Positions 264-50,714 of a DNA stretch of 64,000 bases are shown here, in pieces. The position numbers were made by a program, and so were the translations under genes. Under the pieces are notes generated by a model. That model saw nothing but the letters and a program-made list of their open reading frames with translations, was not told where the DNA came from and did not search any database. Position 1 is the first letter of the stretch. Every line of letters begins with the position of its first letter. Origin of the DNA: Alphaproteobacteria bacterium (GTDB lineage: Bacteria; Pseudomonadota; Alphaproteobacteria; UBA828); NCBI GenBank assembly GCA_965216915.1, contig CBDCGS010000011.1, positions 1,314,569 through 1,378,568 on the forward strand, written 5' to 3'.

Positions 264-2720
264 TCAAGCCTTGACGCGGGAATTGTCGGGGTCATAGAGC
301 GATCGGGTGTGAAGCGTGGCCGGCACGATGCGGGTTGCCACCTCCAGCTCGTAGGTGCCGGATTGCAGGTAGTCATCGCTGACGCCGGCCTCGTTGCGAA
401 CATAGCCGAAGCCGATGCCGCGCCCGATGGTATGGCCGAAGCCCGCCGAGGCGAGCCAGCCGACGCGCTCTCCATCGCGGATGATCGTCTCGCGGCCCCA
501 GAGCTGCACCTCCGGGTCGTCGTCGATGCTCAGCGTGACGAGCTTGCGCGTGAGCGGCCTCTCGCGCTGGCGCTCGAGTGCCTCTTGGCCGATGAAAGAC
601 TGCGGTTTGTCGAAGGCAACCGCGAAGCCGAGGCCCGCTTCCAGCGGCGTGTAGTCCGACCCGATATCGGCGGCCCAAACTCGATAGCCTTTCTCGAGCC
701 GAAGACTGTCGATCGCCCGATAGCCCGCATCGCGCAAGCCCCGCTCAGCACCGGCATCCATCAGCGCGTCGTAAACGGTCACCATGTACTCGGTCGGAAC
801 GTGCAGCTCCCAGCCGAGTTCGCCGACGAAGGTGAGGCGCATCGCGCGCACTGGTGCGCCCGCTATGTAGATCTCGCGCACCGAGCCAAAGGGAAAGCCC
901 TCCGCGCTGACATCGCTTTCGGCCGCCGCGCCAAGGATCTCGCGCGCCTTCGGCCCCATCAGCGCGAGCGTTCCGAAGGCCGATGTGACGTCGACCAAGG
1001 ACGCGTGGGCGTCGTCAGCCATATTGCGCGCGATGTGGTCGAAGTCGTGGGTCGCGAAGCCCGTGCCCGTGACGATGTAGTAGTGGTCGTCTGCGATGCG
1101 CGCGACCGTCAAGTCGCATTCGATGCCACCATGCTGGTTGAGCATTTGCGTGTAAATGAGACGGCCGGGCGGGCGCGCGACGTTTGCGGCGCAGAGCCGC
1201 TGCAACACGGCTTCGGCATCGCGTCCGACCAGCGCGAATTTCGCGAAGGAGGATTGATCGAAGAGCGCCGCCGTCGAGCGGCACGCGGCGTGCTCGGCGC
1301 CGACATGGTCGTGCCAGTTTGGCCGCTCGAAGGACTCGACCTCGACCGGCTCGACGCCGTCCGGCGCGAACCAGTTGGGACGCTCCCAGCCGAATTTCGC
1401 TCCGAAGCATGCCCGTTTCGCCGCGAGGTGGTCGTAGATCGCACTCCGGCGGAGCGGGCGCCCGGCCTTCATCTCCTCGCGTGGCCAGACGACCGTATAG
1501 TGGTGGCCCTGTCCTTCCAGCGAGCGCACCAGCACTTGATTGTCGGAGCGGTGGTAGCCGCCGAAGCGGCGGATATCGAAGCTCCAGAGGTCGTAGGGCG
1601 GCTCGCCGTTCATGATCAGCTCGCCGAGCGCCATGCCGGCGCCGCCGCAGCCGGTCACGCCATAGGCGTTGAAGCCTGCGCTGACGAAGATGTTGCGCAC
1701 TTCGGGCGCCTCGCCCATCACGGGGTTCTGGTCTTCGGTGAAGGCTTCGAGGCCGTTGAACCATGTCTTGATGCCGGCCGTTTTGAGCGCGGGGATCCAC
1801 TCGAGCAGTCCCTCGAGGCGCGGCATGAAGTGGTCCAGATTCTCGGGCATGAGCTTGAACTCATGGTCCCGCGGGATCTGCCCGAGGAAGGGGATTGGGT
1901 CGGGATCATATTGGCCGACGATCAAGCCGCCGACCTCCTCGCGGATGTAGTGCCACAGATCGGGGTCGCGGGTCGTTGGGATGTCTTTCGTCACCCCCTC
2001 GATCGGCTCGGTGACGAAATAGCAATGATGGGACGGCTGGATCGGCACGTTGACGCCGGCTAGGCGTCCGACCTCGCGTGACCAGATGCCACAGCAGATC
2101 ACCGCCTTTTCGCAGCGGATCATGCCGCGCTCGGTGACGACGCCCGCGACGCTGCCGCGCTCGATCTCGAAGCCCGTGACGCCCGTGTCCTCGAACAAGC
2201 GCGCGCCATATTGGCGGGCCCCCTTGGCCAACGCCATGCAGAGATCCGAAGGGCTGAAGGCGCCGTCGGACGGGATGTAGAGCGCGCAATCGACCTTGTC
2301 GATCGTCATCAGCGGGAAGAGATCTTGCGCTTCCTTCGCCGAGATCAATTCCATTTCGACGTTGAACGAGCGCGCGGTGGTAATCGCCCGCTCATATTCG
2401 CGGCGCCGATCCTTGTTGGAGGCGACCCGCATCCCGCCGGTTTGGCGCCAGCCCGTGGCCTGACCGGTTTCGGCCTCGAGCGAGGCGTAGAGATCGGCGC
2501 CATAGGCCATCAGCCGCCCGGCGTTCGGATCGGTGCGAAATTGCGCAAAGGCACCGGCGGCGTGCCACGTCGAACCCGAGGTGAGCTTGGCCTTCTCGAC
2601 GAGAACGACGTCTTTGCACCCGTGTTTGGCGAGGTGATAGGCCGTCGCGCACCCGATCGCGCCGCCTCCGATGATGACGACCTGCGCCTGGTCCGGAACC
2701 GCCTGGTCCATGAGCCTCAC
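264..2720 (-). CDS. Dimethylglycine/sarcosine dehydrogenase-family flavoprotein: N-terminal FAD oxidoreductase domain plus C-terminal GcvT-like folate-binding aminomethyltransferase domain (818 aa)
   Basis: N-terminal Rossmann motif VVIIGGGAIGCATAYHL. The ~810-aa length and the C-terminal block (RLEKGYRVWAADIG...GTYELEVATRIVPATL) are typical of the DMGDH/SarDH family. Confidence 0.85.
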   Translation of the reverse strand: MRLMDQAVPDQAQVVIIGGGAIGCATAYHLAKHGCKDVVLVEKAKLTSGSTWHAAGAFAQFRTDPNAGRLMAYGADLYASLEAETGQATGWRQTGGMRVASNKDRRREYERAITTARSFNVEMELISAKEAQDLFPLMTIDKVDCALYIPSDGAFSPSDLCMALAKGARQYGARLFEDTGVTGFEIERGSVAGVVTERGMIRCEKAVICCGIWSREVGRLAGVNVPIQPSHHCYFVTEPIEGVTKDIPTTRDPDLWHYIREEVGGLIVGQYDPDPIPFLGQIPRDHEFKLMPENLDHFMPRLEGLLEWIPALKTAGIKTWFNGLEAFTEDQNPVMGEAPEVRNIFVSAGFNAYGVTGCGGAGMALGELIMNGEPPYDLWSFDIRRFGGYHRSDNQVLVRSLEGQGHHYTVVWPREEMKAGRPLRRSAIYDHLAAKRACFGAKFGWERPNWFAPDGVEPVEVESFERPNWHDHVGAEHAACRSTAALFDQSSFAKFALVGRDAEAVLQRLCAANVARPPGRLIYTQMLNQHGGIECDLTVARIADDHYYIVTGTGFATHDFDHIARNMADDAHASLVDVTSAFGTLALMGPKAREILGAAAESDVSAEGFPFGSVREIYIAGAPVRAMRLTFVGELGWELHVPTEYMVTVYDALMDAGAERGLRDAGYRAIDSLRLEKGYRVWAADIGSDYTPLEAGLGFAVAFDKPQSFIGQEALERQRERPLTRKLVTLSIDDDPEVQLWGRETIIRDGERVGWLASAGFGHTIGRGIGFGYVRNEAGVSDDYLQSGTYELEVATRIVPATLHTRSLYDPDNSRVKA

Positions 2721-2867
2721 CTCCGAGAAGCGGCAAACGCAAAATCGCCGCGAGCTTATCAGCGCGACCTGGAGATAACGAGCGCGCTGTCATACACGCC
2801 TGTTGAGCCGGCGCGGGCGCTGCGGCGTCCAGGGCCGCCCGGTTTCGCGGCGAGCCCGGCCTCGCTC

Positions 2868-3665
2868 TCAGCGTTCGGTGGTCAGGAGATCCGACCGGAC
2901 GAAGTCGACATGGTCGGTGATGATCTCGATGGCGCGGGCCGTGTCTCGGCGCGCGAGCGCGGCGAGCAGCGCCTCATGCTGCGTGTTGTATTCAGCGATC
3001 CGTTCCGGCGTCAGGATCTTGTCGCGGATCGTGCTCCACTGATCGTGGGTGCGGACGTGGTTCACGCGGCGGCAAATCTCGATCATCAGCGGATTGCGCG
3101 TGGCGCGGGCGAGGCCGAGGTGAAACCGCTCGTCGTGTTTGGAAAAGCGCGCGGGATCGTAGATTGCCGTCGCCATCTCACGGGTTTCGCGCTCGAGCGC
3201 GGCGATATCTCGTGCCGTCGCGTTGCGCACCGCGAGGCGAACGATATGCGGCTCGATCGCGGCCCTCACCTCCGCGAGCTCGAGCGGCGAGGTGATCTCG
3301 GCGACGTCGTCATCCTCGCCGGCGTCCGGCTCGAAGGCCACGAACGTGCCGCTCCCGACCCGGCGCGCCACCAGGCCTTGGGTTTCCAAAGAGCGCAGAG
3401 CCTCGCGCACCGTGCCGCGTGAGGTCGAGAATGTCGCGGCGAGCTCGCGCTCCGTCGGGAGCCTTTGTCCAACCGTCAATCCGCCATCGACAATGCGCCG
3501 CTCGAGCGCGGCCGCGATCGAATCGGCGGTCGAGCTCGCGCGCGCGACGATCGCCTCGGCCTGCTCTTCGGCGAGCGACGCCGTCGGCGCCGGATCATCC
3601 GCTGGGTAACCGCCCCGTTGTCTCATGTACCAATTGTGTGCCAATTCACCCCAATAAGGCAACAA
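2868..3665 (-). CDS. GntR-family transcriptional regulator (FadR/FCD subfamily)
   Basis: HTH signature ...ERELAATFSTSRGTVREALRSLETQGLVARRVGSGTFV followed by a helical FCD-like C-terminal domain. It lies just upstream of the DMGDH-like gene on the same strand. The start is uncertain; an alternative ATG lies at 3626. Confidence 0.8.
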   Translation of the reverse strand: MLPYWGELAHNWYMRQRGGYPADDPAPTASLAEEQAEAIVARASSTADSIAAALERRIVDGGLTVGQRLPTERELAATFSTSRGTVREALRSLETQGLVARRVGSGTFVAFEPDAGEDDDVAEITSPLELAEVRAAIEPHIVRLAVRNATARDIAALERETREMATAIYDPARFSKHDERFHLGLARATRNPLMIEICRRVNHVRTHDQWSTIRDKILTPERIAEYNTQHEALLAALARRDTARAIEIITDHVDFVRSDLLTTER

Positions 3666-3691
3666 AATCCCGTGTCATACGCCAAATTGGC

Positions 3692-3708
3692 TTGACAGAT
3701 ATTGTCAA
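3692..3708. promoter_or_regulatory. Perfect inverted repeat TTGACAgatatTGTCAA in the divergent intergenic region. It is a candidate GntR-type operator and overlaps a -35-like TTGACA hexamer for the plus-strand operon.
   Basis: Read directly from the sequence at 3692-3708. The 6-bp arms are exact reverse complements separated by a 5-bp spacer. A TTATTG -10-like element lies ~17 nt downstream, and the RBS GAGGAG sits at 3731-3736 ahead of the GTG at 3754. Confidence 0.45.
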
Positions 3709-3753
3709 TTCCCGCGTTATTGTCGCAACGAGGAGAACGATGGGAGAGGCGCC

Positions 3754-5097
3754 GTGGCACTTCCGGGCCATGTGAAATACCTCGTCATCGGGGCCGGGAT
3801 TCACGGGCTCAGCACCGCGTACCATTTGGCCGCGTCTCTCAAGGCGCGGGGAATCGGCGATGGCTCCGATATTCTCGTCGTCGACAAGACCGCAATCGCA
3901 GCCGGCGCCTCCGGTATTGCCTGCGGCGTCATCCGCAACAACTACTACCAGCCCGCGATGCGTGAGCTGATGGCGTCCTCCGTGGACATTTGGGAGAGCG
4001 ACCCGGAGGCCTACCACTACCATCCGGTCGGCTACATGCAGATCTCGCATGAGGCGATGCACGACGACGTGGCGCAGATCGCCGAGGAGCAGCGCGCGAT
4101 CGGCTATGAGTCGGTTTTCGTCGAGGGGGCGGACCGGTGCAGCAGCTACATGAAGCAGATCTTCGGTGACTGGCAGGCGGCCGGGATCACCTCAGTGCTG
4201 CACGAGAAGCGCGGTGGCTACGCCAACAACACCGCCTCGATCTACGGTCTCGCGGGAAAGGCAGAAGGAGAGGGCGTGCGCATCCTCACGGGGCTCGAGG
4301 TCACCGGCCTGAAATGCGGCGGCAACTCGCAAGCCGTGACAGCGGTCGAGACCGCCCGCGGCGACATTGAGATCGACCATCTCGTGGTCGCTGCCGGGCC
4401 CTGGGTGCCGCGCATCTGGGACATGCTCGAGCTGCCGCGCCGGATTGATGTGACCGATCCTGCCGGCACGGTGCATCGCGATATCGCCATGTGGCATTTC
4501 TGGTGCCTTGAGGAAGGTACGCTCGGCGTCGAGCCAGACTTCGGCAAGGCCGACAACGGGAACATGCCGCCGGTGATCCATGTCGATTCGGATGCGCCGC
4601 TTCGCTCGGACATCGATGGCCGGGTGCTCACGGAGGAGCCCTGGGGCATCTACTACAAGCCCGATTTCAATTTCGGCGGTATCCAGGGCGGCTCGATGCC
4701 CTACAAGGTGGAAACGTCTGCATCCGACGTCGCGATCGATCCCTACGGGCCCGAGTCGCCCGAGTTCATCGTCGACGATGCGTTCGCGGAGAAGTGGTGC
4801 TCGGCGCTCGCGTTCTGCCAGAAGCGCTACGAGGGCCAAATCGCCAAATGGCGCAAGGAGCCGTCGGGCGGGATCGGTGCCTTTACGGCCGATAGCTTCC
4901 CGGTATTCGATCGCTTTCGCGAGAATTGCTACGTCATCGCCGATTCCAATCACGGCTTCAAAATGATCGCCGTGGGCAAGCTGGTGGCGCAAGAAATCCT
5001 GGGTGAGGCCTCGGCTCTGCTCGAGCCGTTTCGCTTCTCGCGTTTTGCGACCGGCGAGCTGCACCCCACCTCGAACAGCCCGTTCCCCTGGAGCTGA
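3754..5097 (+). CDS. FAD-dependent oxidoreductase (DAO / sarcosine-oxidase-beta-like family), 447 aa
   Basis: N-terminal dinucleotide-binding motif YLVIGAGIHGLSTAYHLA. It has GTG start preceded by GAGGAG. It is the first gene of a plus-strand operon with the GS-like and GltS-like genes. Confidence 0.8.
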   Translation: MALPGHVKYLVIGAGIHGLSTAYHLAASLKARGIGDGSDILVVDKTAIAAGASGIACGVIRNNYYQPAMRELMASSVDIWESDPEAYHYHPVGYMQISHEAMHDDVAQIAEEQRAIGYESVFVEGADRCSSYMKQIFGDWQAAGITSVLHEKRGGYANNTASIYGLAGKAEGEGVRILTGLEVTGLKCGGNSQAVTAVETARGDIEIDHLVVAAGPWVPRIWDMLELPRRIDVTDPAGTVHRDIAMWHFWCLEEGTLGVEPDFGKADNGNMPPVIHVDSDAPLRSDIDGRVLTEEPWGIYYKPDFNFGGIQGGSMPYKVETSASDVAIDPYGPESPEFIVDDAFAEKWCSALAFCQKRYEGQIAKWRKEPSGGIGAFTADSFPVFDRFRENCYVIADSNHGFKMIAVGKLVAQEILGEASALLEPFRFSRFATGELHPTSNSPFPWS

Positions 5098-5144
5098 GCG
5101 GAACGGCGGGAGATCACCGCACCACAACAAGGGATGGCCGAACG

Positions 5145-6614
5145 ATGACCGATCTGGAAGCCCATGTGAGGCAGGAAGGCCGCGACGAGCTGGTCAAGGC
5201 GGTGCGCGCCAAGATCGACGAACTCGGCATCACCTACATCTACTACCAATTCATCTCGGTGACCGGCCGCATCGTCGGCAAAGGCATTCCGGCGGATCAC
5301 TGGGAAGCCATGGCCGAGCGCGGCTTCCAACTCGTTTACGGCTCGACGGCCAATCTCTTCGTCGACCGGCACTCAAACTATATCGGCTACGGGCCCGAGG
5401 CATCGGAGCTCGTCGGGATTCCCGATCCCGAGACCTTCGCCCAGCTCCCGTGGGACAAGCGGGTCGCGCGCGTCTTCTGCACCTGCTTCCGCAACCGCGA
5501 GGAGCCGGAAAACCCCGGCGGACACCTGACCTCGGATTGCCGCGGCAATCTGCGCCTGATCCACGATGAGTTTCAGGCCAAGCACGGCCTCCAGATGCGC
5601 CACGGCGCAGAGCCCGAGATGATGTGGCTCAAGCGTGGCGCCGACGGCAAGGCAGACGGCGGCATCACCAAGCCCAATTGCTATCACATCGATCAGTTCG
5701 AGGAGCTGCGCCCGATCTTCCTGCAGGTCATCGAGTATGCGCAGGCGATGGGGCTCGACATGATCCAGGGCGATCACGAGGATGCGCCCGGCCAGCTCGA
5801 GCTAAACTTCACCTTCGACGACGCGCTCCGCACCTGCGATCGGCTCACTACCTATCGCCAGATTTGCGCTCAGGTCGCCCGCGAGCATGGGGTCATCGCA
5901 TGCTTCATGTCGAAGCCATTCATGGGCGTCTCGGCGAGTGGTTGCCACCACAACATCTCGCTCTGGAAGGGTGGCGAGCAGCAGATCAACGCGCTGCATC
6001 AAGACCCCCTTCCGGGCATGGATGACGTGTTCTCGTACTGGCGCGGCGGCGACAACCTCTTCTTGCCCGATCAGTCTCGCGATCCGCGCAAGCCGGGCCC
6101 GGTCGGCCTCAATTGCATCGGTGGCGTGATGGAGCATCTGCCGGCGCTCACCTCGATCGGCTCCTCGACGGTCAACTCCTACCGGCGCCTATGGGATACC
6201 GGCTTCTGGGCGCCCGTCTTCGCCGATTGGGGCTACCAGAACCGGACGTGCGGGCTTCGGGTGTCGGCACCCGGGCGGTTCGAATATCGCTCGGTCGATT
6301 CGATGGTGAATCCCTATCTGCTGGCCGGTGCGCTCCTGAAGTCGTTCGACGACGGCATCGCGCGCGATCTCGATCCCGGCGAACCGGAGGAGCGCAACAT
6401 CTACGAAGCGATGGACGCCGGCAAGCAGGTCAAGAAGCTCCCCATGTCGCTCGGCGAAGCGCTCGACGCACTTGAGCGCGACGAGGTGATCAAATCGGCG
6501 ATGCCGGACGAGATGTATCGCGTCTTCACGCACTACAAGCGCGACGAGTGGGAGAAGTTCAACGCAACCGTCACCGAGTGGGACGTCGAGACCTATCTCG
6601 ACTGCCTGCCCTAG
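5145..6614 (+). CDS. Glutamine synthetase-family protein; gamma-glutamylmethylamide synthetase (GmaS)-like gamma-glutamyl-amine ligase
   Basis: GS catalytic-domain architecture (489 aa). The genomic context is the canonical GS-like gene followed by a class-II GATase, a GXGXG protein and a GltS FMN protein, as in the N-methylglutamate pathway. Confidence 0.8.
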   Translation: MTDLEAHVRQEGRDELVKAVRAKIDELGITYIYYQFISVTGRIVGKGIPADHWEAMAERGFQLVYGSTANLFVDRHSNYIGYGPEASELVGIPDPETFAQLPWDKRVARVFCTCFRNREEPENPGGHLTSDCRGNLRLIHDEFQAKHGLQMRHGAEPEMMWLKRGADGKADGGITKPNCYHIDQFEELRPIFLQVIEYAQAMGLDMIQGDHEDAPGQLELNFTFDDALRTCDRLTTYRQICAQVAREHGVIACFMSKPFMGVSASGCHHNISLWKGGEQQINALHQDPLPGMDDVFSYWRGGDNLFLPDQSRDPRKPGPVGLNCIGGVMEHLPALTSIGSSTVNSYRRLWDTGFWAPVFADWGYQNRTCGLRVSAPGRFEYRSVDSMVNPYLLAGALLKSFDDGIARDLDPGEPEERNIYEAMDAGKQVKKLPMSLGEALDALERDEVIKSAMPDEMYRVFTHYKRDEWEKFNATVTEWDVETYLDCLP

Positions 6615-6637
6615 AGATCGAGAAGGACGCGACCGAC

Positions 6638-7594
6638 ATGTGTGGGATTGCAGGTCTCATCCACCGTGGATCGAGCGGCGATATTGGCCGCGAGATGACG
6701 GCAATGCTCCAGGCTCTCAGGCACCGTGGACCCGATTCGACCGGGTTTGCGGTTTATGGCCTGCCGGCCGGCGAGGAATTCGTGCTGCGCTTCAAGGTCG
6801 CGGAGCAGGAGGATCTCGCCAAGGGTTTCGACATCCACGACCAGATCCAGACGCGCAAAGCCGCGGTCGACGAGCGCATCCGAAGCATGGGGGGCGAGCT
6901 CGTCGGGCAGGAGGCAGCGACGGAATACGCCTTCCGATACCGCCTCCGCTTTACCGACGGCGCGATGGATCAACACGAGGAGTTCAAGCGCTTCGCGGAC
7001 TTCGTCGAGGATATCGAGGGTGCCGAGATCCTCTCTTTCGGCAAGGCCCTGGAGCTGGTCAAGGACCTCGGCGATGCGACACGCGTCAGCGGGCAGTACG
7101 ACCTCGCGGGCTTCGAGGGAACCCACGCGATCGGCCACACGCGCATGGCGACCGAATCCGATGTCGACATTCGCTCGGCTCATCCTTATTGGGCCTACCC
7201 GTTTTGCGATATCGCGGTCGTGCACAACGGGCAGCTCACCAACTATTGGAAATTCAGGCGCCAGCTTGAGCACCGCGGCCATCGCTTCATGTCGAATTGC
7301 GATTCGGAGCTGATCGCCGTCTACCTCGCCGATCGCATCGCCGAGGGCACGGAGCTCGAAGACGCGATGCACCGGTCCGTCTCCGAGCTGGATGGCGTCT
7401 TCACCTATCTCGTGGCGACCGCCGACAGCCTTGGCATGGCGAAAGACACCATGGCCGCGAAACCCATGGTGCTCTACGAGAGCGACAGCTTCGTCGGGCT
7501 CGCCTCGGAGGAGGTTGCGATCCGGAGCGTGTTCCGCGACGAGATCGAGACTTGGGACCCTTATGAAGGGGAGGTCATGGTATGGCGGAACTAG
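6638..7594 (+). CDS. Class-II glutamine amidotransferase domain protein (N-methylglutamate synthase subunit A-like)
   Basis: Starts MCGIAGLIHRG..., so the Ntn Cys follows the initiator Met. The start was trimmed from the ORF-track start at 6548 to the ATG at 6638. Confidence 0.8.
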   Translation: MCGIAGLIHRGSSGDIGREMTAMLQALRHRGPDSTGFAVYGLPAGEEFVLRFKVAEQEDLAKGFDIHDQIQTRKAAVDERIRSMGGELVGQEAATEYAFRYRLRFTDGAMDQHEEFKRFADFVEDIEGAEILSFGKALELVKDLGDATRVSGQYDLAGFEGTHAIGHTRMATESDVDIRSAHPYWAYPFCDIAVVHNGQLTNYWKFRRQLEHRGHRFMSNCDSELIAVYLADRIAEGTELEDAMHRSVSELDGVFTYLVATADSLGMAKDTMAAKPMVLYESDSFVGLASEEVAIRSVFRDEIETWDPYEGEVMVWRN

Positions 7595-8433
7595 GATCGG
7601 ACGCCCCCCACAAATCCCGTGAAATGGGCATGCATAGCGAGCGGCTCGCGGGCCGCACGCAGCAGGTGTTCTTTTCGCCGGAAGCGAGCGAGAACTTCAC
7701 CTATCCGGAATCCTTCGACGTCGATTTCGACAAGCAGACGGAGCTTGACGCGGGTGAGCTGACACCGATCGAGGTGAACCGGAAGATCCGGCACCTCATG
7801 AAAGAGGGTTACGGCCACATCGTCGTGAAGAACCCGCTCGCCAAACATTCGCTCGGCGTCGGCATCCTCAATCGCCTCAAGCTCGATTTCGAAGGCAGCC
7901 TCGGCTATTTCGGGGTCGGCGAAATCGACGGACCAAACGTGCGCGTGCAGGGCCGCGTCGGGTGGTCCTGCGCCGAGAACATGATGGCCGGCACCGTCGT
8001 CGTGGAGAAGAACGCAGGCTCGACCTTCGGCGCGGCGATGCGCGGCGGCGATCTCGTGTGCAAGGGCGACGTCGGCTCGCGCACCGGCATCGACCTGAAG
8101 GGCGGCACCATCATCGTCGGCGGGCGATCCGGCGCATTCACGGGCTTCATGATGCAGCGTGGCCGCATCGTCGTGCTCGGCGATGTCGGCGCCAATCTCG
8201 GCGATTCACTCTACGACGGCGTCATGTATATCGGCGGCAAGATCGAGTCGCTGGGCGTCGATGCCGTGCCCGGCGAGATGACCGATATCGAGGTCGCCTG
8301 GCTCGAGCGAAAGCTCGCGGCCTACGGGCTCGCCGCACCGAACGGCGCTGCAAACATGCAGAAGATCGTCGCCGGCAAGCAGCTTTGGAATTACGACAAC
8401 CTCGAGCCGACCGAAAAGAAAATCGCGCTTTAG
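7582..8433 (+). CDS. GXGXG-motif protein (glutamate synthase alpha C-terminal domain-like; N-methylglutamate synthase subunit B-like)
   Basis: Glycine-rich beta-helix repeats (GILNRLKLDFEGSLGYFGVGEIDGPNVRVQGRVGWSCAENMMAGTVVV...). It overlaps the upstream stop by 13 nt, which suggests translational coupling. Confidence 0.8.
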   Translation: MAELGSDAPHKSREMGMHSERLAGRTQQVFFSPEASENFTYPESFDVDFDKQTELDAGELTPIEVNRKIRHLMKEGYGHIVVKNPLAKHSLGVGILNRLKLDFEGSLGYFGVGEIDGPNVRVQGRVGWSCAENMMAGTVVVEKNAGSTFGAAMRGGDLVCKGDVGSRTGIDLKGGTIIVGGRSGAFTGFMMQRGRIVVLGDVGANLGDSLYDGVMYIGGKIESLGVDAVPGEMTDIEVAWLERKLAAYGLAAPNGAANMQKIVAGKQLWNYDNLEPTEKKIAL

Positions 8434-8468
8434 GCGCGCTCGCTCGACACGCGATCAGGAATTTCGCC

Positions 8469-9833
8469 ATGGCAACGCGTCCCAAGGATTTACCGAACCG
8501 TCCGGAGCGGAACCGCTACGTGCTCGGCCAGAGCCGCATCTTCACACCGGAGGTGATCGACGACATCCACACGAAGTCGGAGCTCGGCCGCTATCGCATG
8601 CGCGGCTTCTCGATCTTCAAGAACATCCCGACCTTCGACGACCTCACCTTCATGCCGGGCACGCTGACGCGCTTCGTCATCGAGGGCTATCGCGAGAAGT
8701 GCGAGACGAAAACGCTGATCGGGCCGGCGGCCCCGCGCCCGCTCGAGCTCGACATCCCGATCTACATCACCGGCATGAGCTTCGGCGCGCTCTCCTACGA
8801 GGCGAAGACGGCGCTCGCGCGCGGCGCGACCATGGCGGGAACCGCCACATGCTCCGGCGAGGGCGGCATGATCCCCGACGAGCGGCGCTATTCCGAGAAG
8901 TGGCTCTATCAGTGCATCCAGTCGCGCTATGGCTTCAATCCGCACCATCTGCGCCTCGCGGATGGCTGCGAATTCTTCATCGGCCAGGGTTGCAAGGTCG
9001 GCCTTGGCGGGCACCTCATGGGCCAGAAGGTGACCGATCAGGTAGCGGAGATGCGCTCGCTCCCGGCCGGCATCGACCAGCGCTCGCCGGCGCGCCACCC
9101 GGATTGGCTGGGGCCCGACGACCTCGCGCTGAAGATCGACGAGATCCGCGAGGCGACCGACGGGCAAATTCCGATTCAGCTCAAGCTCGGTGCGGCGCGC
9201 GTCTATGACGACGTGCGCATGGCGATCAAGACCAACCCGGACAGCATCTATATCGACGGCATGGAAGGCTCCACCGGCGCGGGCCCGCATCTTGCGACCG
9301 AGGAGACCGGCGTCCCGGGAATCGCCGCGATCCGTCAGGCGCGCAAGGCCTTCGACGACCTTGGGGTGACCGGGCGCATCAGCCTGGTCTATGCCGGTGG
9401 TATCCGAAACGGCGGCGACGTGGCGAAGGCGCTCGCGCTCGGCGCGGACGCCGTGGCGATCGGGCATGCGGCCATGATGGCGCTCAATTGCAACAAGGAC
9501 ATTCCCGAGGCCGATTACGAAAGCGAGATCGGCGTCGAGGCGGGCTATTGCTACCATTGCCACACCGGACGCTGCCCGGTCGGCGTCGCGACGCAGGACC
9601 CTGAGCTGCGTGCGCGGCTCGATCCCGACGAGGCGGCCGAGCGGGTCTACAACTTCCTGCACACGCTTACCCTGGAGTGCCAGATGATGGCGCGCGCGTG
9701 CGGCAAGACCGATGTGCACTCGCTCGAGCCCGAGGATCTTGCCGCGCTCACGATGGAGGCCTCAGCGCTCGCGATGGTGCCGCTCGCGGGAACCCAATAC
9801 ACCGTCGGCCAGCCCGACATGACCCGGTATTAG
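8469..9833 (+). CDS. Glutamate-synthase-domain-2 FMN-binding protein (N-methylglutamate synthase subunit C-like)
   Basis: The GltS FMN-domain motifs are present (ITGMSFGALSYEAKTALARGA...GEGGM...KVGLGGHLMGQKV...YAGGIRNGGDVAKALALGADAV). The start was reassigned to the ATG at 8469 (MATRPKDL), because the earlier part of the ORF-track frame overlaps the previous gene. Confidence 0.8.
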   Translation: MATRPKDLPNRPERNRYVLGQSRIFTPEVIDDIHTKSELGRYRMRGFSIFKNIPTFDDLTFMPGTLTRFVIEGYREKCETKTLIGPAAPRPLELDIPIYITGMSFGALSYEAKTALARGATMAGTATCSGEGGMIPDERRYSEKWLYQCIQSRYGFNPHHLRLADGCEFFIGQGCKVGLGGHLMGQKVTDQVAEMRSLPAGIDQRSPARHPDWLGPDDLALKIDEIREATDGQIPIQLKLGAARVYDDVRMAIKTNPDSIYIDGMEGSTGAGPHLATEETGVPGIAAIRQARKAFDDLGVTGRISLVYAGGIRNGGDVAKALALGADAVAIGHAAMMALNCNKDIPEADYESEIGVEAGYCYHCHTGRCPVGVATQDPELRARLDPDEAAERVYNFLHTLTLECQMMARACGKTDVHSLEPEDLAALTMEASALAMVPLAGTQYTVGQPDMTRY

Positions 9834-9842
9834 GAGGGCGCG

Positions 9843-10238
9843 ATGAGCCAACGCGACCAGGACAACGTCGATTACTTCCTGACAGAAACCGGCCTCGACT
9901 CCGAGCGCGAGAAGGAGATCGGCCAGCACATCGGCTATCGCTACGACGTCAACCTGCTGCCCGACTACGAGCGCATCACGCCGTTCCTGAAGAGCTACAT
10001 GGAGACCATGGGTTGGTCCGACCTCAATTGGCTGGAAGATGTCCACATGGGCTACGAGGAAGGCCGGCCTGCGGTGTTCGACCGCAACATCAACGGCTGG
10101 GTCACGGTGCCGGAGGACCTGGCGCTTCCCAACAATCAGCAAGACCGGGACATGTTGGCACGTGAGTTGCTAGTGAAATTTCAGATGTCACCGAGCCACC
10201 CCATGGTCGATCTCAACAAGGCCTATCGAAAGTTTTGA
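9843..10238 (+). CDS. Hypothetical protein, 131 aa; candidate DMFase small (alpha) subunit by size and position
   Basis: It has strong RBS AGGAGGG 6 nt upstream of the ATG and begins 10 nt after the stop of the preceding gene. There is no recognisable motif. The call rests on context only. Confidence 0.55.
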   Translation: MSQRDQDNVDYFLTETGLDSEREKEIGQHIGYRYDVNLLPDYERITPFLKSYMETMGWSDLNWLEDVHMGYEEGRPAVFDRNINGWVTVPEDLALPNNQQDRDMLARELLVKFQMSPSHPMVDLNKAYRKF

Positions 10239-10328
10239 CATCCGCGGTCTGCGGTGTTGCGATCGAGCAATCGTGCGACACCGCCAACAATGAAGAGCCG
10301 GAGAACGGTCCCACACAGGGAGGAACAC

Positions 10329-10754
10329 ATGGCAGTTGATATTCCGAACAAGACCGGCATCCAACTCAATCAAGGTCACACGTCGACCGACGACTTCATC
10401 ACGCGAACCTATGTTCTGCCGCTCTTGACCGACGAGGCCACCAAGCAACGCCTCATCGAGGAGCATAAGAACAATCCCATCGGCAAGCCGGGCAAGGCCG
10501 GAAAGGCCGGTGTCGGCCATAGCGACGACCTCATTCGCGTCATCGACAAGCTGCGCCGCGCGCCGATGGCCGGCAAGTACGTCCGCATCTGCCTAAAGCC
10601 GCATGAGGAGTATTGCATCGGCGTCACCTCCGGCAAGCGGGGCGCGCCCGTCGAAATTCTTCGGGACGAGGTCTTCCCGAGCGAGGAAGCGTGCGAGCAC
10701 GGCATCTTCCTGAAGCGGATCGAGGACCTCCTCGCCGCCTACGGCGAGAAATAG
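10329..10754 (+). CDS. Hypothetical small protein, 141 aa; paralog of the ORF at 13266-13628
   Basis: It has RBS AGGGAGGAACAC upstream of the ATG at 10329. It shares the block YVRICLKPHEEYCIGV / ILRDEVFPSEEA with YVVVCTKPEEQWCVGQ / LKLLEDMLFDSPEA in the downstream ORF. Confidence 0.5.
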   Translation: MAVDIPNKTGIQLNQGHTSTDDFITRTYVLPLLTDEATKQRLIEEHKNNPIGKPGKAGKAGVGHSDDLIRVIDKLRRAPMAGKYVRICLKPHEEYCIGVTSGKRGAPVEILRDEVFPSEEACEHGIFLKRIEDLLAAYGEK

Positions 10755-10832
10755 CCGCTACCCGCATTCGCACCGAATTGAGACCGCGCGGGCGTCCGAG
10801 CCGACGCCTCACCGCACGGGAGGGAGAACACG

Positions 10833-13190
10833 ATGCTGCGCATCACCGGTTACAGCGATATCTACTCGGCGCATCCAGGCGACGAGGTGAAGTTTTACGT
10901 CAACTCCGAGGACAACGAGGATTACGAGGCGCATTTCGTGCGCCTGATCCACGGCGACACCAACCCTGAGGGGCCGGGATACAAGGAAGAGGAGCTCGAT
11001 GCTCCCTTCAACAAGACGTACACGGGCGTCAACCAGAAGATCCACGGCGGCTCCTACGTCATCATCCCCGATGACGCGCGCATGAACGTCGAGAGCTTTA
11101 CGGTCCAGGCCTACATTTTTCCGACGACGCCGGACAAGGGCGTCCAGGGGGTCGTGACCAAATGGCTCGCCGCGAACAATTCCGGCTACGCGCTCCTGGT
11201 CGACGAGAACGCCAACCTCGCCCTTTGGATCGGCGATGGCAATGGCAAGGTCGAGAAGATCGCGAGCGGCAAGCCGCTCCTCCGCAAGGTCTGGTATCTG
11301 GCGGCGGCGAGCTACGATGCGGCGAGCGGTGAGGTGCGGCTCTATCAGGAGCCGATGGTCAACCCGACCAACGGCGGGCTCGGTATGTCGCTGTTGCACC
11401 CGAACGACGAAACCGCCTCGGAGGTCACGCGGCGCAGCAGCATCGCGCCGGCCGCGAACGATGCGCCGCTGCTGATGGCCGCCTGCACCGCGGTATCGCG
11501 CGCGGGCCGTTCGGTCTCCGGTGGCCACTACAAGGAAGCGACGGAGCCCGTGGCGCTGCCGGAGCAGACCTGCACCTACAACGGCAAGATCGATCGGCCG
11601 CGGCTCTCGTCGGTCGCGCTCGACAAAAGCGGGATCGATGCGCTGGCACGCGGCTTCCAGGGTTGCCCCGCGGGGCTGCGTGAAACCGTGGTGGGCGCGT
11701 GGGATTTCCAGGCGAACATCACCACGAACATCGCGTCGACCCACATCATCGACACCTCGCCCAATGTCCTGCACGGCCATTGCATCAACCTGCCGTGCCG
11801 CGGGATGACCGGGTACAACTGGACCAGCGACGAGATGGTCTACCACCACGCGCCCGACGAATATGGCGCGATCCACTTCCACGACGACGACATCGACGAC
11901 GCCCGCTGGGACGTGAGCTTCACCCTCACCGTCCCCGAGGGCACGAAAAGCGGCGTCTATGCGGCCCGGCTGCGCATCGGCGGCGCGAGCTCGCCTGAGA
12001 CGGAGGACTACATCCCCATCTTCGTGCGGCCACCGCGCGGCACCGCGACGGCCGACATGGCGGTGATCATCCCCACCGATTCGTATCTCGCCTATTCGAA
12101 CGACAACCTGTCGACGAACTCGGTGGTCGCCCAGCTCCTGGCCGGCAAAGTGCCGATCATGCAGGCCTCCGACCTCTATCTGAACGAGCACCGCGAATAC
12201 GGCCTCTCGACCTATTCGCTGCACTCGGACGGAAGCGGCGTCTGCTACTCCTCGCGTCTCCGCCCGATCCTCAACATGCGGCCGAAATATCGCCACTGGC
12301 TGTCGCCCTCGCTCTGGCAGCTCAACGGCGACCTGCATTTGACCGATTGGCTGGAGGAGAAGGGCTTCACTTTCGACATCCACACCGACGAGGATCTCGA
12401 CCGTGAGGGCGTCGACCTCTTGAACCGCTACCGCGTCGTCCTCACCGGGAGCCATCCGGAATATTCGTCGGAGAAAATGCTGGTTGCCTATGAAGCCTAT
12501 CAGCAGAACGGCGGCCGCTGGATCTACCTCGGCGCCGACGGCTTCTACTGGATCAGCCAATATCATCCGGACAACGGCAACATCATCGAGGTCCGCAAAG
12601 GCGAGGCGGGCACGCGCGCTTGGACCGCCAACCCGGGCGAGTACTACAATGCCTTCGACGGCAAATATGGCGGCATGTGGCGCGCCCGCGGGCGCATTCC
12701 TTCCAAGGTCTGCGGCCTCACCTTCACGGCTTACGGCTTCGATGTGTCGTCCTACTACCGCCGCGAGCCGGATAGCTTCCGTCCGGAATGCGCCTGGATG
12801 TTCGAGGGCATCGGCGAGGACGAGGTCATCGGCGATTTCGGCCTCGTCGGCGGCGGCGCGGCGGGTCTCGAGCTTGACCGCTACGACCTCGAGTTCGGCA
12901 CGCCGCACAACGGCTATCTCCTCGCGCGCTCAGAAGGGCATACCGACCTGATGATGCAGGTCAACGAGGAGATCCACTTCACCTGCCGCGGCTATTACGG
13001 CGGCGGCGACGAGAACCCGATGGTTCGCGCCGACATGATCTACTACAAGACGCCGAACGACGGAGCGGTCTTCGGGCCCGGCTCGCTCGCCTGGTGCGGC
13101 AGCCTCTCGCACAACGACTACGACAACAACGTCTCGCGCCTGATGGAGAACGTGATCAACGGTTTCCTGAGGGAAGGCCCATTGCCGTAG
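10833..13190 (+). CDS. N,N-dimethylformamidase large (beta) subunit-family protein, 785 aa, with an N-terminal LamG/concanavalin-like jellyroll domain
   Basis: RBS GGGAGGGAG. The N-terminal region (EVKFYVNSEDNEDYEAHFVRLIHGD...SGYALLVDENANLALWIGDGNGK) resembles a LamG fold. The overall length and architecture match the DmfA2-like family. A long antisense ORF (10809-12908) is a GC artefact. Confidence 0.7.
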   Translation: MLRITGYSDIYSAHPGDEVKFYVNSEDNEDYEAHFVRLIHGDTNPEGPGYKEEELDAPFNKTYTGVNQKIHGGSYVIIPDDARMNVESFTVQAYIFPTTPDKGVQGVVTKWLAANNSGYALLVDENANLALWIGDGNGKVEKIASGKPLLRKVWYLAAASYDAASGEVRLYQEPMVNPTNGGLGMSLLHPNDETASEVTRRSSIAPAANDAPLLMAACTAVSRAGRSVSGGHYKEATEPVALPEQTCTYNGKIDRPRLSSVALDKSGIDALARGFQGCPAGLRETVVGAWDFQANITTNIASTHIIDTSPNVLHGHCINLPCRGMTGYNWTSDEMVYHHAPDEYGAIHFHDDDIDDARWDVSFTLTVPEGTKSGVYAARLRIGGASSPETEDYIPIFVRPPRGTATADMAVIIPTDSYLAYSNDNLSTNSVVAQLLAGKVPIMQASDLYLNEHREYGLSTYSLHSDGSGVCYSSRLRPILNMRPKYRHWLSPSLWQLNGDLHLTDWLEEKGFTFDIHTDEDLDREGVDLLNRYRVVLTGSHPEYSSEKMLVAYEAYQQNGGRWIYLGADGFYWISQYHPDNGNIIEVRKGEAGTRAWTANPGEYYNAFDGKYGGMWRARGRIPSKVCGLTFTAYGFDVSSYYRREPDSFRPECAWMFEGIGEDEVIGDFGLVGGGAAGLELDRYDLEFGTPHNGYLLARSEGHTDLMMQVNEEIHFTCRGYYGGGDENPMVRADMIYYKTPNDGAVFGPGSLAWCGSLSHNDYDNNVSRLMENVINGFLREGPLP

Positions 13191-13210
13191 GCCGTTGCCG
13201 ACGAACGAGG

Positions 13211-13245
13211 CGGCTCCGCGCGCGGGGCCGTTCTCGTCTCGTCCA
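13211..13245 (+). terminator. GC-rich imperfect hairpin followed by a T-containing tract, downstream of the DMFase-like gene
   Basis: cggctccgcgcgcggggccg is a near-palindrome (2 mismatches), followed by ttctcgtctcgtcc. Confidence 0.3.
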
Positions 13246-13265
13246 GACTCTCGGGGAGATCGGAG

Positions 13266-13628
13266 ATGAGAGACAAGACCCGCAGCTCGCTGATGCCGAC
13301 GTTCGAGATGCCACCCATCGGCAAGAAGGTGATGCCGACGACGGCCGAGCCGCCGAGCGAAATCGAGCGCGCCGTGATGGGCGGCCTCGATCCCGACAAG
13401 CTGAGCGACCTTTCGGAGGTTTTGTTCGCCCTCAACAATCACCGGCATGGGCCGATCGAGGGGTTTTACGTCGTGGTCTGCACCAAGCCGGAGGAGCAAT
13501 GGTGCGTCGGCCAGCTCTGCGCGGACCGCGCGAAGCCGCTCAAGCTCTTGGAGGATATGCTCTTTGATTCCCCCGAGGCGGCACAGGCGGCGGCCGAGCA
13601 GCTAAAGGCCGAGCGCGCGAACGCCTAG
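13266..13628 (+). CDS. Hypothetical small protein, 120 aa; paralog of the ORF at 10329-10754
   Basis: It has RBS GGGGAGATCGGAG. The Cys-containing block is shared with the upstream small ORF. Confidence 0.5.
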   Translation: MRDKTRSSLMPTFEMPPIGKKVMPTTAEPPSEIERAVMGGLDPDKLSDLSEVLFALNNHRHGPIEGFYVVVCTKPEEQWCVGQLCADRAKPLKLLEDMLFDSPEAAQAAAEQLKAERANA

Positions 13629-13668
13629 GCGCGCGGCACGATCGCGTGCGCCTGTCTCCGGCCAAGCG

Positions 13669-14241
13669 ATGACCGCCGCCAATCTGAACGCTATCGCGCA
13701 CGCGCTTGCGGCGCTTCGGCCGATCGCCGACGCCGCGACGGTGGGCGCGCAGGCGGCGCTCATCCACGACAATCTCCACGACGTCTATCAGACCGATATT
13801 CGTGCCTTCCAAGATTTCCGGCGCTTCATGAACCGCCGCGACCGTGACGCAGCGGGCACGCTCGCGGCGTTCTTGACGAAGCGCCGGTCGGCGACTGCGC
13901 AAGCACGTGCGGCGCTCGCGTCCCTTTCAGACGATATTCGCGCCGGCGCCGCGGCGTCCCTGGCCGACGGCCAGCGCCAGGCGCTTTGCGTCTACCTGGA
14001 TCGGGTCCTCGACATTTTGGACGTCGAACGGAACCATCCGGACGAGCGTGATCTGCGCGGGGCGCCCCCCTACGCCATCTCCGCGTTCCTCGAGGCCGGT
14101 CCCGAGGCGCGTCGTGCGCAAGCCAGTGATTTGGCCCGGTTTGCCGATGACATGTGGGTGCTGCTCCTCCCCGCTCGGTGGATGCGGCTCACCGCCGCTT
14201 ATGAGTGCATCGCTGCGGCCTCACATGATGGCGAGCGTTGA
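13669..14241 (+). CDS. Hypothetical protein (190 aa)
   Basis: An Ala/Arg-rich helical protein with no recognisable motif. It may be a frame artefact. Confidence 0.35.
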   Translation: MTAANLNAIAHALAALRPIADAATVGAQAALIHDNLHDVYQTDIRAFQDFRRFMNRRDRDAAGTLAAFLTKRRSATAQARAALASLSDDIRAGAAASLADGQRQALCVYLDRVLDILDVERNHPDERDLRGAPPYAISAFLEAGPEARRAQASDLARFADDMWVLLLPARWMRLTAAYECIAAASHDGER

Positions 14242-42823: not shown

Positions 42824-42870
42824 TCGGCGGCGGCCGGTCGGAAACCAGTCCCTTTGGACAGGAGGAAAGA

Positions 42871-43998: not shown

Positions 43999-44012
43999 GC
44001 GGAGGAGCCAAC

Positions 44013-44951: not shown

Positions 44952-44954
44952 GCC

Positions 44955-48860: not shown

Positions 48861-48886
48861 TCCAAAGCAGGAGGAGCAACGCGGAT

Positions 48887-50671: not shown

Positions 50672-50714
50672 GAGACAACTGTCCGGCCCGCCAACGACAC
50701 CGAAAGGAGCTGAA

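Follow-up and report, generated by a model that had tools for sequence, protein, structure and literature searches.

The canonical N-methylglutamate (NMG) cluster, mgsABC-gmaS-(FCD regulator)-mgdABCD, is found, for example, in Paracoccus aminophilus (pAMI6), Methylobacterium extorquens, and Methyloversatilis universalis; the pAMI6 proteins serve as the reference here. In the Puu (Escherichia coli, putrescine) and Ipu (Pseudomonas sp. KIE171, isopropylamine) pathways, a glutamine synthetase (GS)-like ligase activates the amine as a gamma-glutamyl amide, this conjugate is the substrate of a DAO-type oxidase or an oxygenase, and a class-I GATase-type hydrolase is used with an aldehyde dehydrogenase or a P450. 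The closest described amidase is the N,N-dimethylformamidase (DMFase) of Paracoccus, DmfA1/DmfA2 (EC 3.5.1.56; PDB 6LVB; P. aminophilus pAMI2). The roles of its active-site residues come from the solved enzyme, which favors formamides, with a kcat/Km for N-methylformamide 24-fold above that for DMF, hydrolyzes formamide weakly, and is limited to small formamides by F693 (PMC7686228).

We examined a window of 64 kb, meaning the whole stretch of DNA analyzed, which carries the following features. All of the genes listed in a preliminary description are present at or near the positions it gave, with strong Pfam domain matches.

264-2720, minus strand: DMGDH-family flavoprotein, 818 aa (Pfam DAO, FAO_M, GCV_T, and GCV_T_C)
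2868-3665 (ORF; 2868-3626 from the likely ATG), minus strand: GntR/FCD regulator (Pfam GntR and FCD)
3685-3708, plus strand: promoter-like motif and candidate operator (motif recurrence and inverted repeat)
3754-5097, plus strand: DAO-type FAD oxidoreductase, SoxB-like, 447 aa (Pfam DAO)
5145-6614, plus strand: GS-like ligase, 489 aa (Gln-synt_C, 1e-81)
6638-7594, plus strand: class-II (Ntn) glutamine amidotransferase, MgsA-like (GATase_6/7; N terminus MCGIAG)
7582-8433, plus strand: GXGXG-domain protein, MgsB-like (Pfam GXGXG)
8469-9833, plus strand: FMN-binding glutamate-synthase-family protein, MgsC-like (Glu_synthase, 1e-88)
9843-10238, plus strand: conserved 131-aa protein, module gene six
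10329-10754, plus strand: DMFase small subunit (alpha) homologue, 141 aa (6lvb_B, E 2e-4)
10833-13190, plus strand: DMFase large subunit (beta) homologue, 785 aa (Laminin_G_3 and DMFA2_C, 5.6e-93)
13266-13628, plus strand: divergent second small-subunit paralogue (alpha'; 31% identity to the upstream small subunit)

From 3754 to 13628 all genes are co-directional, with -13 to 90 nt between neighbors, and these gaps contain no terminator-like sites on the plus strand; the genes may be cotranscribed. The array is best explained as two separable units, an amine-processing module and an amidase cassette, joined in the same direction under the GntR/FCD regulator, with the cassette starting 90 nt after the module. 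Of the three small ORFs previously called unknown, 9843-10238 belongs to the module and 10329-10754 encodes a homologue of the DMFase alpha subunit; for 10613-10969, which overlaps its neighbors, there is no support as a real gene. The label "island," in the sense of a mobile element, found no support: neither a GC anomaly nor a tRNA gene, an IS element, or repeats at the flanks were seen. The reported lack of a canonical mgdABCD was borne out, and neither these genes nor dmm or tmm genes were found anywhere in the 64-kb window.

The module (3754-10238, under the divergent GntR/FCD gene) is a separate and very widespread unit, which we compared across a sample of 37 module loci. The GS/GATase/GXGXG/FMN set is a relative of gmaS-mgsABC, and the module is a variant of the NMG pathway operon. 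Identities to the pAMI6 proteins were 32% (GS-like protein to GmaS), 32% (GATase to MgsA), 37% (GXGXG protein to MgsB), and 52% (FMN protein to MgsC), which together with gene context upholds the relatedness to gmaS-mgsABC that had been claimed. GmaS orthology was rejected, as the GS-like protein has only 32% identity to GmaS, scores 312 bits against a TIGR03105 cutoff of 470, and in a PDB comparison lies equally far from archaeal GlnA and from GmaS. The ligase may be a gamma-glutamyl-(methyl)amine synthetase from a subfamily other than that of GmaS; because it is not a GmaS orthologue, its amine is not fixed. In the GATase, the catalytic Cys directly follows the start Met. The FMN protein is 84 to 91% identical across metagenomic module loci, and the 131-aa protein is a highly conserved sixth module gene and not an amidase part.

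The nearest solved relatives of the 447-aa DAO protein are sarcosine oxidase beta subunits. Most module loci encode it at 62 to 77% identity, 8 of the 37 lack it, and it is a candidate N-alkylglutamate oxidase. Elsewhere the module is followed by SoxB-D-A-G-type genes (loci L109/L110, L115, L148, L161, and L163) or by a formate-THF ligase (FTHFS) gene (L109/L110, L115, L126, L161, and L171), and Amt transporter genes adjoin it in 9 of the 37 loci. Amt, four-subunit SoxBDAG/Mgd-type dehydrogenases, or FTHFS in this position support a methylamine/C1 role for the module.

The regulator, whose true start as read from the sequence is likely the ATG at 3626, occurs at this place in almost every module locus (41 to 68% identity); with its FCD counterpart in the canonical pAMI6 cluster it shares 38% identity. 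The promoter-like motif AATTGGCTTGACA (3685-3708, plus strand) also lies upstream of the DAO gene in L089, L099, L056, and L040. Overlapping it is a perfect inverted repeat, TTGACAGATATTGTCAA, present as a single copy in the window versus 0.05 expected by chance; no exact matches were found in the other loci fetched before that search. We regard TTGACAGATATTGTCAA as a candidate operator. Across the regulator gene, the 818-aa flavoprotein matches human DMGDH (5l46, E 3.6e-152) and combines an FAD oxidase with tetrahydrofolate-binding GcvT domains (Pfam). It had been counted as part of the block, yet it is not conserved beside the module in most loci; in L133 and L172, DMGDH-like genes of 39 to 42% identity come after the module. 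The flavoprotein may substitute for the four-subunit N-methylglutamate dehydrogenase that the window lacks, although its link to the module is weak.

Membership of the 785-aa protein in the DMFase large-subunit family was confirmed by its match to Paracoccus DMFase 6LVB (6lvb_A, E 6e-193, 646 bits) and by its DMFA2_C domain (5.6e-93), and it is 44% identical to pAMI2 DmfA2. The DMFase catalytic residues are present: S395, Y399, Y440, H519, E521, E657, and F693 are kept, and equivalents of the Fe ligands and of H519, E657, and F693 are kept in the window and in 79 of 79 aligned clade members. The oxyanion residue N547 is Asp in the window (D in 57 clade members, N in 22). The large subunit is predicted to be a mononuclear Fe(III) amidohydrolase. 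Directly upstream, the 141-aa ORF has an ATG start with the ribosome binding site GGGAGGA and is 34% identical to pAMI2 DmfA1 (E 5.5e-11). In relatives, homologues of both alpha and alpha' carry Pfam PF26354 (DMF_alpha). Two small ORFs that had looked unassigned flank beta, giving an alpha-beta-alpha' cassette (10329-13628). The alpha' gene is specific to the clade of DMFase-like cassettes containing the window; it is present in 78 of 80 related cassette loci and on Aminobacter plasmids, while the canonical pAMI2 and DM1 loci lack it. This clade is as distant from proven DMFases (44% identity) as from other paralogues. The cassette is 74 to 83% conserved in many marine genomes (SAR11, SUP05, and sponge symbionts), and two small plasmids of Aminobacter niigataensis, a methylotroph, carry the three-gene type as well (pcAMD1, and p1 of strain DMFA1), there preceded by a LuxR regulator gene.

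Both units are common in marine bacteria, but the joined arrangement is rare: the full module occurs in only 2 of 80 cassette loci and the cassette in only 1 of 37 module loci. Cassette and module are co-directional in the window and convergent in L040 and L056. The closest module relatives (L089-91 and L107-108, with a GS in the same 90%-identity cluster) have a different DMFase alpha-plus-beta paralogue and an ABC transporter across the GntR gene. In L018, L023, L045, and L046, a 68%-identical GS-like gene, a second GS-like gene, and PhyH adjoin the cassette; L045 and L088 also have an Amt gene and an FMO-like gene beside it, and the GS next to the L088 cassette is 68% identical to the window ligase. 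The linkage recurs independently in other genomes, and adjacency in at least four configurations, one with a different DMFase paralogue, argues for functional coupling. As the preliminary description had supposed, we found no published account of it in the searchable literature.

With a DMFase-type amidase directly behind this module, the cell would probably cleave a small N-methylated amide and use up the amine on the spot. We propose, with a probability of about one-half, that an N-methylformamide- or DMF-type amide is converted to formate and a methylated amine and that the amine enters a gamma-glutamyl/N-methylglutamate route. The alpha-beta-alpha' enzyme would cleave a small N-alkylated amide, most likely N-methylformamide or DMF-like formamides, yielding formate and the methylated amine. 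The GS-like ligase would join the amine to glutamate with ATP, the NMG-synthase-like trio would turn the resulting gamma-glutamyl amide into N-alkylglutamate, and the SoxB-like DAO protein would oxidize this back to glutamate, freeing the C1 unit; the neighboring THF-binding DMGDH may perform the oxidation instead. In other genomes, the place of the amidase is taken by an Amt-type (methyl)ammonium transporter, and its replacement here implies that the amine would be supplied inside the cell by hydrolysis and not by uptake. DMF itself, the substrate originally put forward, is unproven because the clade is only 44% identical to proven DMFases and the family includes an N-acetyl-beta-phenylalanine acylase. 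If DMF were the substrate, the step from dimethylamine to methylamine would be missing from the locus, where dimethylamine as a product has no known route. Weighing against the proposal are also the scarcity of joined loci, a flotillin gene as the most frequent cassette neighbor, a ligase that is no GmaS orthologue, and Asp in place of N547.

The units could also be coupled through other chemistry, which we consider unlikely: some other natural amide, such as an N-acyl or N-formyl derivative of ethylamine, a polyamine, or another primary amine, would be cleaved, and the module would gamma-glutamylate and oxidize that amine, not methylamine. The acylase just mentioned (8huy, acting on N-acetyl-(R)-beta-phenylalanine), the ligase identity of only 32% to GmaS, and the presence of another DMFase paralogue with a PotD/F-like SBP_bac_8 ABC transporter beside the closest module relatives all fit such a role, as do GS-like genes 54% identical to the window ligase in P450/GATase1/aldehyde dehydrogenase amine clusters, which look like the gamma-glutamyl pathways for isopropylamine and putrescine. 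However, the module partners are C1 specific (SoxBDAG/Mgd-type dehydrogenases with a THF domain, FTHFS, and Amt), and F693, by which the solved enzyme is confined to small formamides (PMC7686228), does not vary within the clade.

That the adjacency is incidental, with two independent systems and a cassette whose true role is tied to its usual flotillin context, seems rather improbable. The module is missing from over 90% of cassette loci, and the reverse holds too, and one 3.55-Mb contig holds the two 1.6 Mb apart. The commonest cassette neighbor is not an amine gene but a flotillin gene, upstream in 39 of 80 loci and also in Aminobacter DMFA1 p1, and the cassette has been noted within the SAR11 flotillin-rhodopsin cluster (PMC10308929). 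Against this, four juxtapositions in Alpha- and Gammaproteobacteria, one with a different paralogue, are unlikely by chance, and in the window the cassette begins 90 nt after the module in the same orientation, without a terminator-like site between them.

The translation of the FMN gene shows a C-x2-C-x4-C-P motif (CYHCHTGRCP), which we take to resemble the GltS 3Fe-4S site. A route in which a primary amide yields ammonia (formamidase-like) and the module acts as a split GS-GOGAT, Amt-fed elsewhere, could draw on this motif, on the domain types of the three downstream proteins, which match the three found in the large subunit of glutamate synthase, on Amt in 9 of 37 loci, on the grouping of DmfA with ammonia-producing hydrolases in ocean metaproteomics (PMC9477243), and on the weak formamide hydrolysis of the solved DMFase (PMC7686228), but it is very unlikely given that the FMN subunit shares 52% identity with MgsC but is a weak match to GltB (128 bits; cutoff, 1047), that the module has a SoxB-like amine oxidase and is followed elsewhere by Mgd/Sox-type dehydrogenases and FTHFS, that the Amt genes pair with small 57- to 84-aa ORFs and not glnK, and that the 489-aa family does not conserve the Asp that HMMER pairs with D50 of the GlnA ammonium site (MAFFT puts Tyr or Met there).

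Compared with known systems, the acylase 8HUY shares the DMFase large-subunit family (E 8e-136) but is less like the window beta subunit than DMFase is (457 versus 646 bits) and acts on a bulky N-acetyl amino acid, so family membership does not fix the substrate. With Puu- and Ipu-like clusters on Ruegeria and Paracoccus plasmids, the window shares ligases at 54% identity, but the NMG-synthase-like trio is not used there. The canonical NMG cluster shares the GS-like ligase, the class-II GATase, GXGXG, and FMN trio, a homologous FCD-type regulator, and, in some related loci, the SoxBDAG/Mgd-type dehydrogenase and THF-linked C1 genes. It differs in identity (32, 32, 37, and 52%), in order (DAO-GS-GAT-GXGXG-FMN-131aa in the window, not mgsABC-gmaS), and in that the window has an extra SoxB-like DAO and the conserved 131-aa protein, a 489-aa ligase with insertions, and no mgdABCD. 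With Paracoccus DMFase, the cassette shares a Laminin_G_3 plus DMFA2_C large subunit, the 2-Tyr-1-Glu iron site, equivalents of H519, E657, and F693, and a small-subunit gene directly upstream. In contrast, the window cassette belongs to a separate clade (44% identity for beta, 34% for alpha), has Asp for N547 and an extra alpha' downstream, and has neither a LuxR regulator nor IS elements. It lies on the chromosome, next to an amine-processing operon to which it is joined, and its close relatives are abundant in marine genomes, not in solvent-degrading isolates.

We took the inventory of the locus from an ORF listing with a GC3-based filter and from Pfam and NCBIfam scans. These bore out the genes named in the preliminary description, which had read the block at 264-13700 as a candidate composite island for catabolism of N,N-dimethylformamide (DMF) and methylated amines:

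264-2720, minus strand: DMGDH-family protein, 818 aa, with DAO, FAO_M, GCV_T and GCV_T_C domains (E 3.6e-152 to human dimethylglycine dehydrogenase)
2868-3626, minus strand: GntR/FCD regulator, start refined from the sequence
3754-5097, plus strand: DAO-type oxidoreductase, nearest solved relatives sarcosine oxidase beta subunits
5145-6614, plus strand: glutamine-synthetase (GS)-like protein, 489 aa
6638-7594, plus strand: class-II amidotransferase (GATase), N-terminus MCGIAG
7582-8433, plus strand: GXGXG protein
8469-9833, plus strand: FMN glutamate-synthase-family protein
9843-10238, plus strand: 131-aa protein without a family
10329-10754, plus strand: 141-aa protein, homologue of the N,N-dimethylformamidase (DMFase) small subunit (alpha)
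10833-13190, plus strand: 785-aa Laminin_G_3 and DMFA2_C protein, homologue of the DMFase large subunit (beta)
13266-13628, plus strand: 120-aa protein, divergent small-subunit paralogue (alpha')

We refer to the last three genes as the cassette and to the six from the DAO gene to the 131-aa gene as the N-methylglutamate (NMG)-like module. Between 3754 and 13628, the plus-strand intergenic gaps measure -13 to 90 nt. No terminator-like sites were found in these gaps, but the same scan returned fewer promoter and terminator sites than shuffled sequence did and is therefore uninformative on operon limits. Five loci, this one among them, share a promoter-like motif, AATTGGCTTGACA, ahead of the DAO gene; the inverted repeat TTGACAGATATTGTCAA is not kept in the other loci. 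At 13211-13230, in the gap that separates the large-subunit gene from the alpha' gene, there is a GC-rich palindrome, CGGCTCCGCGCGCGGGGCCG. Just past the cassette, a 190-aa ORF at 13669-14241 (plus strand) is a candidate gene with no family match and no counterpart among the related loci. The other genes downstream (SDR, xylose-isomerase-like, HCDH, RND efflux and ABC transporters) look unrelated to the locus.

The term "island" did not hold. GC is 0.63 to 0.66 across 1-14 kb, like the surroundings, the tRNA scan found no tRNA genes in the window, and the repeat scan found no meaningful flanking repeats around the cassette. There were no transposase domains among the scanned window ORFs, and the housekeeping genes lptFG-lptD-surA-ksgA share the window. 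This is a chromosomal catabolic locus and no demonstrable mobile island.

Elsewhere in the window, a second DMGDH-family paralogue (838 aa, the same four domains) lies at 36506-39022 on the minus strand, about 34 kb from the first. A type-II DMSO-reductase-family operon at 39299-45668 (plus strand) encodes a 1174-aa molybdopterin oxidoreductase, an ethylbenzene-dehydrogenase gamma-like EB_dh protein and a NarJ-like chaperone, with the presumed Fe-S subunit in between. The stretch at 45804-51479 (plus strand), at a GC of 0.57 to 0.60 compared with about 0.64 elsewhere, carries a hydantoinase/oxoprolinase A and B pair between two short-chain dehydrogenases.

The 785-aa protein belongs to the DMFase large subunits, as had been proposed. 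It carries the DMFA2_C domain (Pfam PF20254, 5.6e-93) and aligns over residues 3-785 with the solved Paracoccus DMFase (6lvb_A, E 6e-193). In that enzyme, Tyr399, Tyr440 and Glu521 bind Fe(III), His519, Asn547 and Glu657 are essential by mutagenesis (N547A is inactive), and Phe693 is a gate residue (PMC7686228). Loss of such residues would weigh against a DMFase, and we examined them in a MAFFT alignment of 86 family members, 79 of them close clade relatives. The three iron ligands are kept in the window protein and in 79/79 clade members, and the equivalents of H519, E657 and F693 are kept in the window protein. The exception is N547, which is Asp here; 57 clade members have D and 22 have N, so that the two residues seem interchangeable at the aligned position. 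The DMFase reading was thus not refuted.

Two of the three small ORFs listed as unknown in the preliminary description proved to be homologues of the DMFase small subunit. The 141-aa protein matched 6lvb_B (E 2e-4) and DmfA1 of the Paracoccus aminophilus plasmid pAMI2 (34% identical, E 5.5e-11), and the 120-aa alpha' protein is 31% identical to the 141-aa protein. Relatives of both are labelled PF26354 DMF_alpha in precomputed Pfam annotation.

The large subunit is 44% identical to the DmfA2 proteins of pAMI2 and Methylobacterium sp. DM1, which are 84% identical to each other, and is equally distant from uncharacterised DMFase paralogues (43 to 50%). From pairwise identities only, the window amidase would be placed outside the clade of enzymes with demonstrated DMF hydrolysis. 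The family also includes an N-acetyl-(R)-beta-phenylalanine acylase (8huy, a PDB match). Membership in the DMFase family is solid; DMF as the substrate, which had been part of the same claim, is not, given this acylase and the 44% identity to proven enzymes.

We compared the neighbors of 80 cassette loci from a genome-collection scan by tblastn of all window proteins. Their large subunits are 73 to 82% identical to that of the window, and the protein database adds more, up to 83%. SAR11 single-cell genomes, SUP05/Thioglobus and sponge-associated bacteria contribute many of them, as do other marine Alpha- and Gammaproteobacteria. The conserved unit is small1-large-small2 alone (large-small2-small1 in about ten of the 80), and the wider context is otherwise variable. 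The commonest neighbor, upstream in 39/80 loci from SAR11, SUP05 and others (for example, at ~7.2 kb in the cassette locus L037 and ~8.9 kb in L076), is a flotillin-domain gene, an association mentioned in passing in a SAR11 rhodopsin paper (PMC10308929). The window lacks this gene. The closest annotated relatives of the amidase (57 to 58%) come from plasmids carried by the methylotroph Aminobacter niigataensis. Plasmid p1 of strain DMFA1 has the order flotillin (8727-10487 of locus L086, directly upstream of the cassette), small, large, small and then an ABC transporter. The 21.6-kb plasmid pcAMD1 of strain MD1, a metformin-degrading methylotroph, has the order LuxR, small, large, small (467-4889), adjoining transposases; the MD1 paper has no discussion of this cassette. 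Megablast of 3700-13700 against plasmids gave trivial matches only.

The mgsABC-like triad proposed earlier was confirmed by domains, gene order and similarity to the P. aminophilus plasmid pAMI6. An Ntn-type GATase with Cys1, a GXGXG protein and an FMN glutamate-synthase-like protein are contiguous at 6638-9833 and are 32%, 37% and 52% identical to MgsA, MgsB and MgsC, respectively; the GntR/FCD regulator is 38% identical to the pAMI6 FCD regulator. The observation that no canonical mgdABCD is present also stood, as the four-subunit, SoxBDAG-like MgdABCD is absent from the whole window, where the SoxB-like DAO and the DMGDH-family protein are found instead.

The gmaS-like reading of the GS-like protein was not clearly supported. 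It is 32% identical to pAMI6 GmaS and scored 312 bits against the TIGR03105 cutoff of 470. Among PDB matches it was about equidistant from an archaeal GlnA, at 203 bits, and two structures of GmaS, at 187 and 181 bits. Because of the sub-cutoff score and this equidistance, we assign the ligase by sequence to a subfamily of its own rather than to GmaS orthologues. We dropped the D50/S53 loop as an indicator of ammonium versus alkylamine either way, since HMMER pairs the ligase "VDRHS" with GlnA "FDGSS," MAFFT places the loop differently, and the subfamily does not conserve the candidate Asp. Ligase relatives of 54% identity are found on Ruegeria and Paracoccus plasmids, where their neighbors are a second GS-like gene, P450, ferredoxin, and class-I GATase or aldehyde dehydrogenase; these are gamma-glutamyl amine-catabolic settings.

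The 131-aa protein, with no Pfam family and no fold match, is a good module marker. It drew at least 8,000 scored candidates at E<=1e-5; the best matches listed are 66 to 88% identical, and an alignment of 29 sequences has 69 invariant positions. Neighborhood look-ups and an unbiased metagenome set seeded with this marker (37 loci of at least 8 kb) gave a constant core of a divergent GntR gene and (DAO)-GS-GATase-GXGXG-FMN-13x aa. The partners vary. Genes for SoxB-D-A-G/Mgd-type four-subunit dehydrogenases directly follow the module in L109/L110, outside that set (called genes, Pfam); within it, L115, L148, L161 and L163 have SoxB- and SoxA-like genes after the module (tblastn). Formate-THF ligase is a partner in L115, L126, L161 and L171 as well as in L109/L110, and DMGDH-like genes are partners in L133 and L172. 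The 818-aa DMGDH is not conserved beside the module, and we downgraded it as an integral part of the system. Together with the Amt transporters described below, the recurrent partners of the module indicate methylamine/C1 metabolism more than a general role in assimilating ammonium.

Adjoining the module, L109/L110 (1-2772) also hold a 686-aa Oxidored_FMN/Pyr_redox_2 protein, with the architecture of trimethylamine/dimethylamine dehydrogenases, and another GS-like gene, whose 437-aa product is only 27% identical to GmaS. Amt-family transporters followed by ORFs of 57 to 84 aa adjoin the module in 9/37 loci. Such an ORF, and not the usual glnK, follows each Amt gene at L098-L106, L125, L126, L148 and L171, and the pairing may mark a distinct Amt subtype, possibly methylammonium-specific.

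We favor a model in which the amidase would convert a small N-methylated formamide to formate and a methylated amine, the ligase would gamma-glutamylate the amine, and the Mgs-like trio would turn the product into N-methylglutamate. This could then be oxidized by the SoxB-like DAO or by the adjacent THF-binding DMGDH. N-methylformamide would fit best among the candidate substrates, since its kcat/Km with the solved DMFase is 24-fold that of DMF (PMC7686228) and methylamine needs no extra step. DMF hydrolysis would yield dimethylamine, for which the window has neither dmmDABC nor a dimethylamine dehydrogenase. With an acylase in the family, the substrate and product might be another amide/amine pair; we think this unlikely.

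Linkage of cassette and module is rare. The whole module stands at 2/80 cassette loci (L040 and L056), the cassette stands at 1/37 module loci (L122, on the L040 contig), and one 3.55-Mb contig holds both 1.6 Mb apart. The arrangements also differ. The window has the cassette immediately behind the 131-aa gene, both on one strand; in L040 and L056, cassette and module are convergent. The closest module relatives (GS in the same 90%-identity cluster) have a different DMFase-family pair on the other side of GntR, a 100-aa alpha and a 750-aa beta (50% to the window beta), with a PotD-like ABC transporter. Four gammaproteobacterial loci have the cassette next to two GS-like genes, one of them 68% identical to that of the window, and a gene for a PhyH dioxygenase; one locus recorded twice (L045/L088) additionally has an Amt transporter and an FMO-like gene. 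The pair of GS-like genes (488 and 456 aa) and PhyH flank the cassette at 3119-14238 of L088 and also in L018, L023, L046 and L026. Such a neighborhood may encode an alternative route for that amine, based on an oxygenase. With so few linked loci, the adjacency could be incidental, but we hold this to be quite unlikely, as genes for the amidase and an amine ligase have come together independently, which argues for an amine, or ammonia, as the amidase product that the ligase consumes. An ammonia-releasing amidase feeding a GS/GOGAT-like system would satisfy that argument as well, and is improbable given the C1 partners of the module.

For the favored formamide-to-amine model, the linked loci suggest that the amidase releases a small (methylated) amine and that this amine is then consumed. 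The window cassette stands where other module loci have Amt, which fits an internal amine supply in place of uptake. To a bolder reading we give a probability of roughly 0.12. Here the cassette would be a natural-substrate "dimethylformamidase," ocean-wide in SAR11, SUP05 and sponge symbionts, converting N-methylated formamides that occur in nature to formate and methylamine or dimethylamine. Processing of the amine would fall to the 489-aa ligase/NMG-synthase-like/DAO module. It might even include dimethylamine, via gamma-glutamyl-dimethylamide and N,N-dimethylglutamate, which, if true, would bypass dimethylamine monooxygenase.

DMF is seen as a solvent of human making. DMFase-family genes are nevertheless widespread, and this clade is 74 to 83% conserved in abundant marine bacteria. 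The wiring of the cassette, or a paralogue, to a gamma-glutamyl/NMG-type module in a handful of loci is a concrete, testable clue to their natural role. If the favored model is true, marine C1 and nitrogen cycling would gain a source of methylamines and formate. Both the three-gene DMFase type with a second small subunit and the very common NMG-like operon, with its extra SoxB-like oxidase and strongly conserved 131-aa protein, seem worth biochemical study.

In the full-text literature, marine "DMFase" receives passing, annotation-level mentions only. Our searches found nothing on a three-gene or characterized marine DMFase, strain DMFA1 or the variant module. They likewise found no description of DMFase-NMG linkage, in agreement with the preliminary description, and a genomics preprint on DMFase distribution does not address it. 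The proven DMFase loci, on pAMI2 and the Methylobacterium sp. DM1 plasmid, consist of LuxR-dmfA1-dmfA2 with IS elements; unlike the window, they have no second small gene and no N-methylglutamate genes nearby. The layout of pcAMD1 mirrors that of pAMI2, but with the three-gene DMFase type. For the module, the canonical pAMI6 cluster is mgsA-mgsB-mgsC-gmaS-FCD regulator with soxB/D-type genes nearby. Cassette and module thus belong to known kinds, and the alpha' subunit, the six-gene module architecture and the coupling of the two are new variants.
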